Shown here piece after piece: positions 8,952-25,290 of a stretch of 33,568 nt of DNA (position 1 is its first letter; each line of letters opens with the position of its first letter). Origin of the DNA: a plasmid; the NCBI RefSeq assembly GCF_988242995.1, contig NZ_OZ547045.1; one strand, given 5' to 3'. The notes under the pieces are model-generated. The model was not told the origin of the DNA. It made no database searches and saw only the letters and a program-made list of their open reading frames with translations. The position numbers were made by a program, and so were the translations under genes.

Positions 8952-9404
8952 ATGAGTAAAGTTATTGATTTTCCTACCGGGAAAAACAGGGAGAGAAGGG
9001 CTAAGGCGATCCGGGCGCGTCGTAATAAGGCGCAGCAGCGGAGCGGAATAACCCCCTCCCAATTTTGGTGGGTAAAGAAAATAAAGTTTCTCACCGTTAT
9101 TAAAGGGTCGGCACGTTTACTTTTGATACATTCAGGGTTATTAGTTGCCGACATCCTTATCTATCTCATCTTTATTTTAGGAAAACTCCTAAAGGTATTT
9201 ACGATAATTGGCATCATCGCGGCGCTTCTGTTTCTGGTCGTGGAATATAGGAAGGATTGGCAATATACGCAATCCGCAATCCACGTCGCAGCACTATTTG
9301 TTGGCCTGGTAGTAATACGTATCGGGCATGACAAACTACTGAATGGCCTGATAAGGCTTAAATCCTACCTATCCAGAAAAGGGCAACAACAATGCGGAAG
9401 ATAA
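8952..9404 (+). CDS. Hypothetical membrane protein with basic N-terminal region
   Basis: 150 aa, AAGGAG RBS, Arg/Lys-rich N-terminus followed by hydrophobic helices. Confidence 0.6.
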   Translation: MSKVIDFPTGKNRERRAKAIRARRNKAQQRSGITPSQFWWVKKIKFLTVIKGSARLLLIHSGLLVADILIYLIFILGKLLKVFTIIGIIAALLFLVVEYRKDWQYTQSAIHVAALFVGLVVIRIGHDKLLNGLIRLKSYLSRKGQQQCGR

Positions 9405-11158: not shown

Positions 11159-11485
11159 CTATCCAATCAGCACTTTTATTTTAGCCCTAACCTCAGCTAA
11201 TACGACAGGAGGCACTTTTCCCTTTTTAACCGCGCCACGTTCCCGCCAATCAAGGCTTTTCACCTGGTCAGCCAGTACAGCGCTCCCCTCCCCGCTCATA
11301 ACCTCAAACGGATAACCTTTTATTTTTGTTGTCATAGGGCAGCACAGCAACAACCCTATTCTGCCGTTATATACCGCAGGGCTTAACACTAAGGCTGGTC
11401 TATGCCCCGCTTGTTCATGCCCTGCTTGCGGATTAAAATCCATCCATACAATATCACCGGCATCAGGAATATAGTCATTCGCCAT
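11159..11485 (-). CDS. mazF: MazF/PemK-family endoribonuclease toxin
   Basis: 108 aa; YIPDAGDIVWMDFNPQAGHEQAGHRPALVLSP ... LADQVKSLDWRERGA ... KVLIG closely resembles E. coli MazF (from memory). Confidence 0.9.
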   Translation of the reverse strand: MANDYIPDAGDIVWMDFNPQAGHEQAGHRPALVLSPAVYNGRIGLLLCCPMTTKIKGYPFEVMSGEGSAVLADQVKSLDWRERGAVKKGKVPPVVLAEVRAKIKVLIG

Positions 11486-11753
11486 TTTCTAACTTCTTCC
11501 TTCTATAGCCAACCCAGATAAACGTCAAAATGATAACGCCGCAAAGAATAAACATCAGTGCAACTGGAGTTGTATCGAGCACAGAAATAACTTGCTTACC
11601 ACCCTGATCGTCTAATGAAAAAGATTTATCATTAAACAACCTGTCTATACCCAACCATATTGAGTAAACGGCAATCCAAACCCATGCAACCTTACCGGCT
11701 ATATCCAGTAAAGCCACCACTCTTTTAAATATTTTTTTCATTGCAGGAGACAT
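11475..11753 (-). CDS. Hypothetical two-helix membrane protein inserted between mazE and mazF
   Basis: 92 aa; ATG 1 nt after mazE stop, stop overlapping mazF start by 11 nt; two hydrophobic segments. Confidence 0.5.
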   Translation of the reverse strand: MSPAMKKIFKRVVALLDIAGKVAWVWIAVYSIWLGIDRLFNDKSFSLDDQGGKQVISVLDTTPVALMFILCGVIILTFIWVGYRRKKLENGE

Positions 11754-11754
11754 A

Positions 11755-12000
11755 TTACAACACCTCTTTTCCTACTGGTGCGCCGAAAGAAATTTCCTCA
11801 TGAATATTCTCGTTAGTAACACAGGCCATCAAAGCATCCAGTGAATATTCCTTCGTTTTAACCGGCACAATAGTAATTTTCCCGTCCTCAACAGACAGCT
11901 CCACTACATCATTCACGCTTAAAGAAGCCTCCCGGATAATCGAAGAAGGGAGACGAACGGACGGGCTGTTACCCCATTTTTTAATAGTTACTTGAGTCAT
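11755..12000 (-). CDS. mazE: MazE/PemI-family antitoxin (AbrB-fold)
   Basis: 81 aa; KKWGNSPSVRLPSSI ... IHEEISFGAPVGKEVL parallels E. coli MazE (from memory). Confidence 0.9.
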   Translation of the reverse strand: MTQVTIKKWGNSPSVRLPSSIIREASLSVNDVVELSVEDGKITIVPVKTKEYSLDALMACVTNENIHEEISFGAPVGKEVL

Positions 12001-12030
12001 TACGCACCTCAGTTAAAAGCAGTTAGCCGG

Positions 12031-12237
12031 TTATCGGCTATTTAAGATGTACCAGGTTTCTTTAGCTTTAAAGAAAGCCCATACCCACGCCAGAGCTGAA
12101 GCTATACACAACGCCGTCATATTGACGAAGTTTCCCGGCGTGTATTCAGGGCCATGTAAAACAAGACCCGCCAGAGAAGCCAGGCTAATGACTATGAAAA
12201 TCAGTCCAAACATGATGTGAAAAATAAGCCAAAACAC
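12031..12237 (-). CDS. Hypothetical small membrane protein upstream of mazE
   Basis: 68 aa, two hydrophobic helices; start codon uncertain. Confidence 0.4.
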   Translation of the reverse strand: MFWLIFHIMFGLIFIVISLASLAGLVLHGPEYTPGNFVNMTALCIASALAWVWAFFKAKETWYILNSR

Positions 12238-12249
12238 TCACCACCTCCC

Positions 12250-12313
12250 GTATCAACCTTGTTGATACATTAACGCTACACTCTGTAGATTGACGTGTCA
12301 ACATTGTTGATAC
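12250..12313. promoter_or_regulatory. Cluster of palindromes in the divergent TA-operon / resolvase control region
   Basis: GTATCAACcttGTTGATAC (12250..12268), TTGACGTGTCAA (12290..12301), GTCAACattGTTGATAC (12297..12313). Confidence 0.5.
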
Positions 12314-12336
12314 AGGTAGTGTCTCATAAACGATGA

Positions 12337-12441
12337 GTTTTGTTACACCGCTCCCGACCTATCCAAAAGCATCAAAATGTATGTTGCCAGTGTAACAAAA
12401 CTCGTTACAATAGTATGTGTAACAAAAACGGTGTAACAAAA
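12337..12441. promoter_or_regulatory. Putative res (resolution) site: repeated TGTAACAAAA half-sites just upstream of the resolvase gene
   Basis: TGTAACAAAA at 12391, 12418 and 12432, inverted TTTTGTTACA at 12337; position matches res of serine resolvases. Confidence 0.5.
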
Positions 12442-12451
12442 AGCAGGACAT

Positions 12452-13036
12452 ATGAAGATAGGCTACGCCAGAAAGTCAACTAAAGAGCAAGACACATCGC
12501 TTGAGTACCAGATTGAGGCTTTACAAAAAGCCGGGTGCGAAAAGTGGTATGCGGAGCAGGTATCGAGAAGCGGTAGTAAACGGCTTAAAGCAGGTACACC
12601 AGAGTTAGAAAATTGCATCAAAGCGCTTCGCCCTGGTGACACGCTGGTTGTGTGGGCGCTAGATCGGTTGGGCGGGACTCTATTACAGCTTTTGCAGCTT
12701 ATGAATGAGCTACGCAACAAAGGCATTCATTTTGAAAGTATTAAAGAACATATCGACACACAAAGTCCAATGGGTGAAATGTACTATTCGCTCATAGCTA
12801 TTTTTTCCAATTTCGAGGTAGCCAGAAACCACGAAAGGACAATGGCCGGGCTTGCGGCTGCAAAGAAGAAAGGGCGCATTGGTGGCAGAAAACCAAAGCT
12901 ATCACCACAAGACATAAAAGAAATTAACGCGCTTGTTAAATCGCCAGAAGTTACGGTAAAAGAGATCGCGGCTCGTTTTAACGTGTCACGGCCAACGATT
13001 TACAGACACATTACCCCCGATAGTAATACTGATTAA
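12452..13036 (+). CDS. Serine recombinase of the resolvase/invertase family (plasmid multimer resolution)
   Basis: 194 aa; N-terminal GYARKSTKEQ with catalytic Ser, C-terminal HTH (VSRPTIYRHI). Confidence 0.9.
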   Translation: MKIGYARKSTKEQDTSLEYQIEALQKAGCEKWYAEQVSRSGSKRLKAGTPELENCIKALRPGDTLVVWALDRLGGTLLQLLQLMNELRNKGIHFESIKEHIDTQSPMGEMYYSLIAIFSNFEVARNHERTMAGLAAAKKKGRIGGRKPKLSPQDIKEINALVKSPEVTVKEIAARFNVSRPTIYRHITPDSNTD

Positions 13037-13068: not shown

Positions 13069-13953
13069 GTGACAGATAAATCAGTACCAGCGAAGCAGAT
13101 AAAAACGGTAAACACCGGAATCGCGATTAAAGAGAATCCCCCCAAAGGGGATGATATGGCATTCACCCATTCGATATTGTGTCAAGTTGGCCTCCCCCGC
13201 TCTAAAGTGGATGGCCGGGAGTTCATGAGAAAATCAGGCGATGCCTGGCTAGTTGTCCAGGCCGGCTGGCTTGATGAAGGAAGCGGCCCGGTAGAACAAC
13301 CGATCCCCTACGGCTCAATGCCCCGTTTAGCGCTCGCCTGGGTATCGTCGTATGCACTCCGCAAAAAGACCCGCGAAATACCGATCGGTAAGAGTGCTAA
13401 TGAGTTCCTGCAATTAATGGGTTTATCAGGCGGCGGCAGACAATACAAAACACTACGCGAACAAATGCACGCGCTGGCAGCTTGCCGGTTGCAGTTAGGT
13501 TTTAAAGGTCGTTCTTTCAACGGCCAGCCTGTAGAGCAATTCGATGCCTGGCAGAAAGACGACCAAAGCGGCCAGCTAAGTTTATGGCCGGGCGTAATGA
13601 CCCTTTCAGAAGGGTACTTTAATGGGCTGATTGATAGCGCCGTTCCTCTCGATAACCGCGCTCTGTACGCGCTAAAGGGTTCGGCATTGTCGTTAGATGT
13701 TTATACGTGGCTTGCGCATCGTCTACACCGCATCCAGGGCCGACCGATTAAACTTCACTGGATGAATTTACGGGAGCAGTTTGCGCAAGAGTATATGGGT
13801 AAAGACCCTGACAAAGATTTTAAGAAGAAATTTCTTCCAGCTCTGCGCGACGTACTGACTGTATACCCACAGGCGAAGGTGGATAAAGTCACCGGAGGGA
13901 TATTACTGTATCCGTCTCCCCCACCTATCCCGTTCAAGGAAGGAAAAAAATAG
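13069..13953 (+). CDS. repA: Putative replication initiator (RepA-like)
   Basis: 294 aa; immediately upstream of the iteron array and DnaA boxes, downstream of resolvase. Assignment is mainly by context. Confidence 0.65.
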   Translation: MTDKSVPAKQIKTVNTGIAIKENPPKGDDMAFTHSILCQVGLPRSKVDGREFMRKSGDAWLVVQAGWLDEGSGPVEQPIPYGSMPRLALAWVSSYALRKKTREIPIGKSANEFLQLMGLSGGGRQYKTLREQMHALAACRLQLGFKGRSFNGQPVEQFDAWQKDDQSGQLSLWPGVMTLSEGYFNGLIDSAVPLDNRALYALKGSALSLDVYTWLAHRLHRIQGRPIKLHWMNLREQFAQEYMGKDPDKDFKKKFLPALRDVLTVYPQAKVDKVTGGILLYPSPPPIPFKEGKK

Positions 13954-14056: not shown

Positions 14057-14370
14057 TTATCCACGTACATCCGACCCCCCTGATTACCGTACATCCGACC
14101 CCCCTTGTCGTACATCCGACCCCCTAGCTTTGTACATCCGACCCCCTAAGTCGTACATCCGACCCCCTTTTTTTGTACATCCGACCCCCTATTTTTTGTA
14201 CATTAGACCCCCTGAAAATACGTACATCAGACCCCCCCTAAACCTATAAGGTGATCTCCTGTAGGTTTCCTGTAGTTTGACCGATAGCACTTAACCTATA
14301 AATTTTGCTTCTAAGAGATCAGCCTGTATGAATGCCCTCCGATAATTTATTCAATAAAATCAGTGGATAA
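14057..14370. other. oriV: DnaA-box-like sites flanking the iterons plus an AT-rich stretch
   Basis: TTATCCACG at 14057..14065; AGTGGATAA at 14362..14370; AT-rich 14280..14400. Confidence 0.7.
14065..14240. repeat. Iteron array: 8 direct repeats of GTACATCCGACCCCC at 21-24 bp spacing (last two degenerate)
   Basis: Repeat units begin near 14065, 14089, 14110, 14132, 14153, 14175, 14198 and 14222. Confidence 0.85.
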
Positions 14371-14713
14371 AATAATAAATCGAATAATTTAAGTTCAGTG
14401 TGTACGTGCCAATATCAGCAGCGGGAGCCTTTGCGCTTCCTCGCTTTTGTTGTTCGTTCCTCGCGTTGCTGCGGTACGCCTCAACAAAAGACTGCGGCGA
14501 GCGCTGCGATCTCTCAGGTAACAGATTGGGATTTAGTGCAAAGGGGGGAGGTAAAAAAGAGTGAGGCCCATCACCGGCAAGTAATGGGCCTCTGTCTTTC
14601 CTGCGAAGGAGCAGATTAGACGTTGTAAGAAGTATAGACGAAAGCAGTGTGGTATTGAAAGGGGATTCAGAGCGCCCTATATTTAATCATCAATACATCA
14701 ATTTTGGTGACTT

Positions 14714-19845: not shown

Positions 19846-20005
19846 GCTTACTTATGGCGTTCCCTGCGGGCCGGGCTTTCGTGCTGCGCATCGAGCCAGG
19901 CAAGCTGTCTCGCCCCTTCGGGCTTCAATCCCTAACGCCTCCGGGCTTTCGCCCTCCGCGCTCCGCTTGGCCTCCGGGCTTTCGCCCTCCGCGCTTTGCT
20001 TGGCC
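19846..20005. repeat. CUP-like repeat fragment D (left arm only) with an internal 33-bp tandem duplication
   Basis: Matches the left ~125 bp of copies B and C; CCTCCGGGCTTTCGCCCTCCGCGCT(C/T)(C/T)GCTTGG duplicated at 19939..19971 and 19972..20004. Confidence 0.8.
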
Positions 20006-20243
20006 TTTCCAGCCGGTGCCAGCTCCGGGCCGCGAGGATAACCGGCGGGAGGCGAACTGTCCTCCACAGCTCCCCGTTCCGTTGGATGGTCTGCCGTTCC
20101 TCCATTACCGGTATTCCACACTAGCGCGGTGTGGCGTCAATAGTTCGCTTCGCCGCTTCGCGCTATTGACCCCACCCCTTGCGCCAGTGTTACACACCGG
20201 TTGTCGGAAACGACAAACCCTCCAACTACCCTACAGGTGCTTT

Positions 20244-20473: not shown

Positions 20474-21113
20474 TACTTAGGGCGTTCCCTGCGGGCCGGG
20501 CTTTCGTGCTGCGCATCGAGCCAGGCAAGCTGTCTCGCCCCTTCGGGCTTCAATCCCTAACGCCTCCGGGCTTCGCCCTCCGCGCTCCGCTTGGCCCCCA
20601 CGCCCTGCGCCGGACTTGCCCCGCCTACGGCGGCCCCGCCCCTCCGGGGTGGCTTCGCCATCCTCTGCCAGCGGCACCGGCGCTAACGTGCCTGTAGGGG
20701 CGCTGGCCGCGCTGCGGCCATCCCCCCAACACCCGGATAAATCGCGCCCGGCCCGTCGCTACGCGCCAGCCCGCCCGCTCAACCGGGCCGTTGTGACGGG
20801 CCACTGTTCCGGCAGCGGCATCGTGTGACAGCCCGCTAAAACCGGCTTTGCAGGGAGGGGGGGGGCGCGTCTCCCGGTTTGATCCCGCAAGGCCCGGCAA
20901 TTTGACCACGTCGCCCAGGTTGAGATCGGCGCAATTGCCTTTTATTTGTCGGCATCGGCGCTAAATTTAAGTAAATTTACCGTACTATATAATGATACTT
21001 AAAGTTGACTTTTTAGGGGGGAAAATCTATACTTTATTTACGGTTAGCAATGGTGCTGACCGACCCGGAACCAGCGGCGGCAACCGCTCCGGGTAATCTG
21101 CGAAGGAAAATGT
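20474..21113. repeat. CUP-like repeat, full copy C
   Basis: Near-identical to copy B over about 640 bp. Confidence 0.9.
21005..21061 (+). promoter_or_regulatory. Cassette promoter P4 (TTGACT-17-TATACT) with leader hairpin
   Basis: -35 at 21005..21010, -10 at 21028..21033, inverted repeat at 21042..21061. Confidence 0.7.
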
Positions 21114-24839: not shown

Positions 24840-25290
24840 CTATATGGCAGCCTGTTTTAGCTGTCAATCGGTTTTTGTAGTATTTCAGTAGTATTCCTGT
24901 AGTAATTCAGTAGTAACGCTTGTCGATACCGCTCATTTTTGTAGTATATCTGTAGTAATGGCTATTTCAGTTTGTAGTATTTTAGTAGTAATTCAGTAGT
25001 ATCGGTGTAGAAAACTTTCATGCAAGCATGAAAGTGGTGAATGTGAACGCTTTTTGAGCGTTTTATGCGTGTGTAAGACCTGTTTCTCCCTTAAAAAAGG
25101 CGTGTTATGGTATCCCTTAATGGCTATACACCATACGCAATTACGATTTTCATCGTAAATGCTTGAAAACAAAACAAATTATTCTAATTTGTGTTTTCAT
25201 ATGTAATACACTACGTATTACATATGTGTGTCTAAGCCGCATATATGCTAGATTTAACTGTATTACATCGGTATTACATCAAGGAAACCC
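24840..25290. other. oriT region: 11-bp direct repeats, inverted repeats and a putative nic site
   Basis: About 10 copies of (T/A)GTAGTA(T/A)(T/A)nn in 24876..25010; IR ACTTTCATGCaaGCATGAAAGT (25014..25035); IR CATATGTAATACactacGTATTACATATG (25198..25226) followed by GTGTGTCT|AAGCC. Confidence 0.65.

Follow-up and report, generated by a model that had tools for sequence, protein, structure and literature searches.

A dense cluster of palindromes and direct repeats lies between two divergent transcription units of a plasmid, one encoding the toxin-antitoxin pair MazE/MazF and the other a small serine recombinase followed by the replication initiator RepA, and it raises the question of whether these repeats form one control region or several. 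The sequence that we analysed, called the window throughout, is a 33,568-nucleotide stretch from contig NZ_OZ547045.1 (assembly GCF_988242995.1). The gap between the two units occupies positions 12238-12451 and measures 214 bp, not the 213 bp given in an initial annotation of the window. That annotation took the right half of the gap for a plausible res site and the left palindromes for either MazE operators or further resolvase subsites, so that multimer resolution and addiction-module control might be coupled in one region.

We consider it quite probable that the gap instead consists of two separable modules: a MazE/MazF operator-promoter, and the res site and promoter of a dimer-resolving resolvase. 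The two modules are close together, with 6 bp between the second palindrome of the left module (pal2) and the crossover site of the right one (site I). In classic IncN1 plasmids that lack mazEF, site I, the 43-bp spacer next to it and the accessory sites B/B', C and D are all retained, and both left palindromes are absent. Because IncN1 plasmids keep res without the palindromes, and mazE homologues elsewhere have the palindromes without res, we regard the modules as separable and merely adjacent. The conservation of a whole res (site I to D) in plasmids without the palindromes also speaks against the latter being further resolvase subsites. The proposed coupling of resolution to addiction is not supported, given the free reassortment of the two sides, with the junction inside site I.

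Repeat motifs of the gap

Every motif listed in the initial annotation is present, and the motifs are clustered far beyond chance and kept in related IncN-type plasmids. The sequence GTTGATAC has three copies in the window, all inside 64 bp, where 0.84 would be expected; three copies were reached in 2 of 100 shuffles. The sequence TGTAACAAAA has exactly four copies, all inside 104 bp (on the plus strand at 12391, 12418 and 12432, and on the minus strand at 12338-12347), while approximately 0.08 exact copies are expected window-wide. Its sole other match in the window, at 9121, has one mismatch. A plasmid-wide regulon, i.e., a KorA/ArdK-like operator, was rejected as a candidate, since neither motif occurs elsewhere in the plasmid.

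In an alignment of the gap region with 15 relatives, conserved islands of 90-94% identity stand amid diverged sequence. They comprise pal1 (the first left palindrome), pal2, the block 12320-12347 (28 bp), TGTAACAAAACYCGTTACA, and two half-sites further downstream. One motif of the initial annotation, the palindrome TTGACGTGTCAA (12290-12301), exists but has no such standing. It is an inverted repeat with arms of only 5 bp, its GTCAA is part of pal2, and it reads ATAGGCGTGTCAA in the 99%-identical plasmid pCFSAN004085 (L001) and is missing from the other relatives. Because it is not conserved even in a 99%-identical plasmid, we regard this inverted repeat as incidental.

The proposed MazE operator-promoter

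We assign the left part of the gap, 12249-12314, as the promoter-operator of the leftward operon orf68-mazE-orf92-mazF, on the basis of the following predicted elements.

12250-12268, unstranded: pal1, the promoter-proximal palindrome GTATCAACCTTGTTGATAC = GTATCAAC-ctt-GTTGATAC, spanning the predicted leftward transcript start
12273-12278, minus strand: predicted leftward -10, TAGCGT (TACACT in relatives), 17 bp from the -35, from reading of the sequence and alignment
12295-12313, unstranded: pal2, the second palindrome GTGTCAACATTGTTGATAC = GTGTCAACA-t-TGTTGATAC, containing the leftward -35
12296-12301, minus strand: leftward -35, a perfect TTGACA, inside pal2

The leftward promoter falls below the threshold of our consensus scan and was predicted from the sequence and the alignment. 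The centres of the palindromes are 45 bp apart, and pal1, which is conserved in 15 relatives, adjoins the GGAGG Shine-Dalgarno sequence of orf68 on its upstream side. The palindromes thus overlap the predicted promoter of an operon that encodes an antitoxin.

Two lines of evidence point to MazE as the predicted binder of pal1 and pal2. The first, which we consider decisive, is that the same palindrome, GTATCAACAATGTTGAYAC, directly precedes the gene for a MazE homologue in four unrelated plasmids (L017, L018, L019 and L021), where MazE identities are 76, 63, 56 and 46% and the neighbouring genes encode ParA/ParG or hypothetical proteins, with no adjacent serine recombinase. In the closest of these (L017, 76%), two palindromes are 45 bp apart with TTGACA within the upstream one, which matches the layout of the window, and there is no resolvase. 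The second is the similarity to Escherichia coli K-12, in which CGTATCTACAATGTAGAT...GTATCTACATATGATAG lies upstream of mazEF; the counterparts in the window are GTATCAACAATGTTGACAC and GTATCAACAAGGTTGATAC. The operator core GTATCAACAATGTTGAYAC differs from the E. coli core GTATCTACAATGTAGAT by a symmetric A/T swap of one base per arm. The E. coli mazEF operator is 47 bp long, binds three MazE dimers at sites that overlap the promoter, and is bound more strongly with MazF (PMC4333400). Since the E. coli sequence sits within this 47-bp operator, the window palindromes are homologous to an experimentally defined operator. Of the two options in the initial annotation, that of MazE operators is therefore the one borne out: the palindromes travel with mazE homologues that have no adjacent resolvase, and they are homologous to the operator of E. 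coli.

Under this assignment, MazE, aided by MazF, would bind the two 19-bp palindromes. Because one palindrome holds the -35 and the other spans the transcription start, occupation of both would repress transcription of the operon, in the manner known from E. coli mazEF.

The proposed res site

The right part of the gap, 12320-12444, we assign as the res site of a serine resolvase of the ResP/Uvp1 type. It is directly upstream of a small serine recombinase gene, ending 8 bp before the ATG, and it contains a probable crossover subsite of the usual kind, i.e., of approximately 28-30 bp with inverted half-sites around a central dinucleotide. The initial annotation was right to see a plausible res site here, but its extent was too short, as res reaches left to 12320. 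We distinguish the following elements, whose roles are predicted.

12320-12347, unstranded: res site I, the probable crossover site, TGTCTCATAAACG-AT-GAGTTTTGTTACA, a 28-bp imperfect inverted repeat with its central AT at 12333-12334
12348-12390, unstranded: spacer of 43 bp between site I and the accessory sites, whose right end holds the resolvase -35 in this lineage
12384-12411, plus strand: resolvase-repA promoter, TTGCCA-16 bp-TACAAT, with 10 of 12 matches in the consensus scan, the best promoter in the gap
12391-12409, unstranded: accessory site B/B', TGTAACAAAACTCGTTACA, in which the outer half-site motif forms a palindrome of 19 bp, overlapping the promoter spacer and the -10
12418-12429, plus strand: accessory half-site C, TGTAACAAAAAC, downstream of the -10
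12432-12443, plus strand: accessory half-site D, TGTAACAAAAAG, downstream of the -10

The half-site TGTAACAAAA(A)C consists of an outer recognition block and an inner A-tract. In site I, the left half, TGTCTCATAAAC (12320-12331), pairs with the minus-strand copy of this half-site at 12336-12347. The initial annotation had noticed an inverted partner at 12338-12347, which is indeed present, but had not recognised it as the right arm of a probable 28-bp crossover site. The 26-bp core is GTCTCATAAACG-AT-GAGTTTTGTTAC in the window and GTCTCACAAACG-AT-GGTTTTTGTGAC in relatives, with natural half variants TGTATCAAAAAC and TGTCTCATAAAC, and it fits the 12-2-12 layout of the Din family, TTC---AAAC / GTTT---GAA. 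An example of that layout is hixL, TTCTTGAAAACC-AA-GGTTTTTGATAA (PMC3241671, Table 3). Site I is the single inverted dimer-type site in the window, with a score of 32.7 against 1.7 for the next best and a shuffle maximum of 10.7, and its identity across 7 lineages is 90.5%.

The Din-family layout is in line with the recombinase itself, which is Gin-like. The protein has the Pfam domains Resolvase (3.8e-38) and HTH_7 (1.7e-10), and is much nearer to Gin (4.6e-38) than to the gamma-delta or Tn3 resolvases (approximately 1e-17 to 1e-15). A documented resolvase subfamily that is close to invertases is ISXc5 (reference 46 in PMC12217951). The minor-groove arm (GGRKP) and the recognition helix (RFNVSRxTIYR) are invariant across the resolvase lineages, which we match to the conserved half-site. 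A tblastn search with the resolvase at E<=1e-40 retrieved only IncN-type relatives, at identities of at least 59-61%, and no more distant characterised system.

We compared the spacer among the window and six relatives (L002, L003, L004, L006, L009 and L024). It is exactly 43 bp in all 7 lineages, while its sequence has a mean identity of 37% (20.9-100% pairwise) and exists in at least five mutually unrelated versions. This combination of constant length and unrelated sequences implies a strict geometric constraint without a sequence constraint. A conserved IHF site in the spacer was considered and dropped, as the window has a near-match only (CATCAAAATGTAT), which is not conserved in other lineages.

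To the right of the spacer, three strong extra half-sites (B, C and D) together with B' are found at the fixed distance of 43 bp, in place of two canonical inverted dimer sites. B/B' is 94% identical across lineages, including R46, pLEW517 and pKOX105. C and D form a head-to-tail tandem in a 14-bp register (12+2+12), conserved in relatives as RTAACAAWAAC and RTAAC(A/T)AA. In a window-wide scan with a position weight matrix (PWM), the five best matches are the five proposed half-sites. A scan of 100,044 genomes (298 Gb) for the B/B' palindrome GTAACAAAACNCGTTAC gave 75 matches, roughly the number estimated to arise by chance; one of them, an Atlantibacter IncN fragment, is a true relative.

The resolvase promoter overlaps B/B', with C and D downstream of it, and its -10 is conserved in relatives as TACART/TACTRT. 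No promoter-like site or terminator was found in the interval between the resolvase gene and repA, and the adjacency of these genes is kept in relatives. For these reasons repA is probably co-transcribed with the resolvase gene from the promoter embedded in res.

In some relatives, the resolvase gene is separated from the res/promoter region by an extra gene (2664-3383 in L004, L011 and L013; 2719-3141 in L006; 2560-3277 in L015). It has a TrbG/VirB9-like annotation (239 aa) in one group and encodes a 140-aa hypothetical protein in another. In such relatives, the res-embedded promoter would head a three-gene operon ending in repA.

We propose that a resolvase dimer would bind the 28-bp, hix-like site I and cut at the central AT, while further resolvase subunits would occupy B/B', C and D, the 43-bp spacer holding the distance. 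In a plasmid dimer, the two copies of res would synapse via the accessory sites, and strand exchange at site I would then yield monomers. Because the promoter lies inside the accessory sites, resolvase bound there may also repress its own operon, probably including repA, as in Tn3/gamma-delta.

Probable natural recombination at site I

Pairs of related plasmids change abruptly in similarity at site I. The left flank is 99% identical and the right 56% between L002 and L003; the corresponding values are 100% and 59% for L002 and L006, and 100% and 65% for L003 and L009. Between L009 and pLEW517 (L024) the relationship is reversed, with 28% on the left and 100% on the right, while pLEW517 and pKOX105 (L023) have approximately 100% on the left and 46% on the right. 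There are two left types (a mazEF side and an EcoRII side) and two right types (R46-type and pKOX105-type), and all four combinations exist. The mismatches nearest to the exchange on either side place the junctions of these natural recombinants inside the putative crossover site, at positions 9-16 of site I (AAACGATG), which include the central AT. This is the pattern that resolvase-mediated exchange would be expected to leave.

The region has also been a target for integrons. Class-1 integrons with Tn402-type ends are described as "res hunters" that target res sites (PMC12217951). Two independent Tn402-type insertions in the same orientation are found here. In R46 (L016), the IRi end of In1 directly borders the spacer, 15 bp to the right of the position that site I has in an uninterrupted relative; in pKOX105, IRi is 66 bp to the left of site I.

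We also observed that the integron inverted repeat IRi has an outer end, GTCTTCTGAAAACGACA, similar to the left halves of both site I and hixL (TTCTTGAAAACC) (L016, 33830-33870, minus strand; L023, approximately 1285-1310). In R46, the IRi end and adjacent spacer (…GTCTTCTGAAAACG|ACATTGCCTATACA) make a 28-bp stretch with a TGTATA-type outer end at the right. As a speculation, this likeness might relate to the use of integron sequence by the R46 res, which is discussed below.

A broader proposition, which we put forward tentatively and regard as doubtful in its joint form, has two parts. One is that site I is an exchange point at which IncN backbone modules are swapped, with the mazEF/restriction-modification side on one hand and the resolvase and replication sides on the other. 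The other is that the res-embedded promoter is the only recognisable promoter of repA in the IncN2/N3-type lineage, such that resolvase occupancy would set the supply of RepA and link dimer resolution to replication control.

Alternative explanations

It is important to consider other functions that the same repeats might serve. The TGTAACAAAA repeats could be operators for a factor other than the resolvase, e.g., in autoregulation of RepA or for another plasmid or host regulator, with no recombination taking place at the gap. This would fit the position of the repeats, which overlap and follow a good promoter, the presence of repA in the same probable operon, and the 19 bp of the B/B' palindrome, a typical size for a repressor operator and short for a serine-recombinase dimer. 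However, we consider it unlikely: these repeats are also found ahead of the resolvase gene in R46, pLEW517 and pKOX105, whose RepA belongs to an unrelated family and is encoded elsewhere (PMC7826253), the half-site motif also builds the 28-bp site I, where the junctions of natural recombinants are located, and Tn402-type integrons target the region. A RepA operator in particular was rejected, as the iteron sequence GTACATCCGACCCCC (14064-14236) has no match in the gap at up to 3 mismatches, and the repeats occur in IncN1 plasmids with an unrelated RepA. It is very unlikely, in our estimation, that pal1 and pal2 are extra resolvase subsites, or sites shared by MazE and the resolvase, that couple dimer resolution to expression of the addiction module. 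The 6 bp from pal2 to site I would suit such an arrangement, and so would the right arms of the palindromes, TGTATCAACAAT/G, which are similar to the half-site TGTAACAAAAAC and take the 7th and 13th places when the whole plasmid is scanned with the PWM. On the other hand, the palindromes accompany mazE homologues in plasmids without an adjacent recombinase, are missing from IncN1 plasmids with a complete res, and match the E. coli mazEF operator, and the toxin-antitoxin/operator and resolvase sides reassort independently of each other.

A further possibility is that the Gin-like recombinase is a DNA invertase, and that the 14-bp inverted repeats at 12335-12348 and 12390-12403 flank an invertible promoter that switches resolvase-repA on and off. 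Homologues are annotated as DNA invertase in several records, the protein is nearer to Gin than to gamma-delta resolvase (4.6e-38 versus approximately 1e-17), and the 14-bp inverted repeat is perfect, with the -35 between its arms. Yet of the features of a Din invertase system, a Gin-like protein and a 12-2-12 site are found, but two inverted crossover sites around an invertible segment are not. The 33.6-kb window has one full inverted dimer site only, B has no partner half-site at the 12-2-12 distance, and the 41-bp segment between the arms is far below the size of invertase loops (approximately 100 bp for the smallest in the Hin system). No relative in the alignment has the segment in the opposite orientation, and the R46 homologue, the recombinase Uvp1, was reported as an active resolvase (Tosini 1998, as cited in PMC12217951). 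An invertible promoter was therefore rejected, given the single dimer-type site and the same orientation of the 41-bp segment in all relatives, and we regard it as extremely improbable.

The reading that we prefer, of an operator-promoter beside a res site, also has points against it. R46 lacks site I altogether, and its active res reportedly uses integron 5'-CS sequence as subsites I and II (PMC12217951); the activity of the homologue was thus shown on a res that lacks a site I of this type. Both left palindromes have a right arm (TGTATCAACAAK) that matches the resolvase half-site weakly, as the PWM ranks reflect, and the resolvase may cross-bind weakly there. Homologous recombination across the 28 conserved bp is, in principle, another route to the mosaics. 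The accessory sites are not the three inverted-repeat dimer sites of Tn3/gamma-delta, and since B/B' has only 19 bp and C/D are direct repeats, our assignment of subsites is provisional. Finally, other lineages do not share the resolvase -35, and the point about repA is accordingly less general.

Comparison with known systems

Both modules are homologues of systems that have already been studied. What they add is a probable, hix-like crossover site that serves as a mosaic junction of IncN backbones, and a res-embedded promoter that may drive repA.

The R46 (IncN1) Per/Uvp1/ResP resolvase and its res region were reportedly described by Dodd and Bennett in 1986-87. The R46 protein is 59% identical to that of the window, with an invariant DNA-binding arm and helix, and B/B', C and D are upstream of its gene in the same order and spacing. 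However, In1 interrupts the R46 region and site I is absent, whereas the window and pLEW517-like plasmids have an uninterrupted site, and the R46 res reported as active is a hybrid with integron 5'-CS (PMC12217951). The genes beyond also differ, as the window has an IncN2/N3-type repA after the resolvase gene and the mazEF operon on the other flank.

The res site of Tn3/gamma-delta is similar in being immediately upstream of the resolvase gene, approximately 125 bp long overall and between divergent transcription units. Its site I, like the putative one here, spans 28 bp with TGT...ACA ends around a central AT, and it has a promoter inside res and accessory sites required at fixed phasing, both of which are predicted for the window. 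In contrast, the proteins are distant (approximately 1e-17), the spacer from site I to the accessory site is 22 bp there and 43 bp here (PMC12217951), and its accessory sites are two dimer sites with inverted repeats (34 and 25 bp), compared to a 19-bp palindrome and tandem direct half-sites in the window. The Din-family sites (hix, gix, cix and pix) and the ISXc5 subfamily resemble our system in the recombinase, which is closest to Gin, and in the 12-2-12 core of site I. They differ in that the plasmid has one site and no invertible segment, in the central dinucleotide (AT here, AA/GA there), and in that accessory recombinase sites would take the place of the Fis enhancer.

Sin, the Staphylococcus resolvase, offers a parallel for C and D: a Sin dimer binds the direct-repeat site II on a 29-bp duplex (PMC2428073). 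The head-to-tail 12+2+12 register of C/D is that of site II, and resH also has a long spacer between site I and the regulatory site. The proteins are only weakly related (approximately 1e-7 to 1e-12), the palindromic B/B' is extra here, and Sin needs an HU/IHF site in the spacer, where our 43-bp spacer has no conserved sequence.

For the left module, the E. coli K-12 mazEF operator ("cab", 47 bp) is the closest model. MazE and MazF are the closest solved relatives, the core differs by one base per arm, and both operators overlap a promoter. However, the window has two palindromes 45 bp apart where E. coli has three contiguous sites, and it has a small membrane open reading frame (ORF) between the operator and mazE and a further ORF that splits mazE from mazF.

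These comparisons bear on what the assignments are worth. We offer a proposed map of an uninterrupted res for the IncN ResP/Uvp1 family, in which a probable crossover site is followed by a spacer of constant length (43 bp) and then by accessory half-sites; studies of the classical R46 system dealt only with a form that an integron had disrupted. The map would explain why class-1 integrons are found beside the resolvase gene in many clinical IncN plasmids, and site I would show where IncN backbones recombine with one another. On the left, a MazE operator is assigned for a widespread plasmid variant of mazEF. Should expression of repA prove to start at the promoter within res, the resolvase would in addition affect how many copies are kept of the IncN2/N3 replicon, which is little studied and has been described as virtually unexplored (PMC7826253). 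Papers on IncN2 and IncN3 plasmids do not dissect this region.

Flanking genes and other features of the plasmid

The window is an IncN-type conjugative plasmid and is nearly complete. Over the 3 kb tested, it is 99.4% identical to the Salmonella plasmid pCFSAN004085, which is typed as MOBF and MPF_T. Approximately 130 related records come from Escherichia, Klebsiella, Citrobacter and Salmonella. The genes and other features around the gap are as follows.

11159-11485, minus strand: mazF toxin, Pfam PemK_toxin (4.2e-25), E. coli MazF (1.6e-38)
11475-11753, minus strand: orf92, a small predicted two-helix membrane ORF
11755-12000, minus strand: mazE antitoxin, Pfam MazE_antitoxin (1.2e-11), E. 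coli MazE 1ub4 (1.6e-16)
12031-12237, minus strand: orf68, a small predicted membrane protein that leads the leftward operon, with a GTG start, from the ORF list
12244-12248, minus strand: GGAGG Shine-Dalgarno sequence of orf68, read from the sequence
12452-13036, plus strand: small serine recombinase (resolvase) of the ResP/Uvp1 family, 194 aa, Pfam Resolvase and HTH_7
13069-13953, plus strand: repA, an IncN2/N3-type initiator, Pfam RepA_C, 32 bp past the end of the resolvase gene
14064-14236: eight direct iterons with the core GTACATCCGACCCCC at a spacing of 21-24 bp, presumably oriV, approximately 110 bp downstream of repA

In the leftward operon (11159-12237), mazE and mazF are not contiguous, as orf92 intervenes, with an 11-nt overlap with the start of mazF. 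In three relatives (L002, L004 and L006), an additional ORF of 180 aa separates mazE from mazF. Pfam gave zero matches for orf68, orf92 and this extra ORF, and the counterpart of orf68 in CP074311 is annotated as hypothetical.

Beyond the iterons, there is an AT-rich stretch at approximately 14290-14400. The 11-bp tandem repeat GTAGTATTTCA forms two arrays, at 24877-24915 (3.5 copies) and 24974-25002 (2.6 copies), with approximately 60 bp between them; these could be binding sites for a partition, stability or transfer protein. GC-rich tandem repeats are found by Tandem Repeats Finder at 19937-20006 and 20563-20590, with a 33-bp unit, GCCTCCGGGCTTTCGCCCTCCGCGCTCCGCTTG, in 2.1 copies and related 14-bp units.

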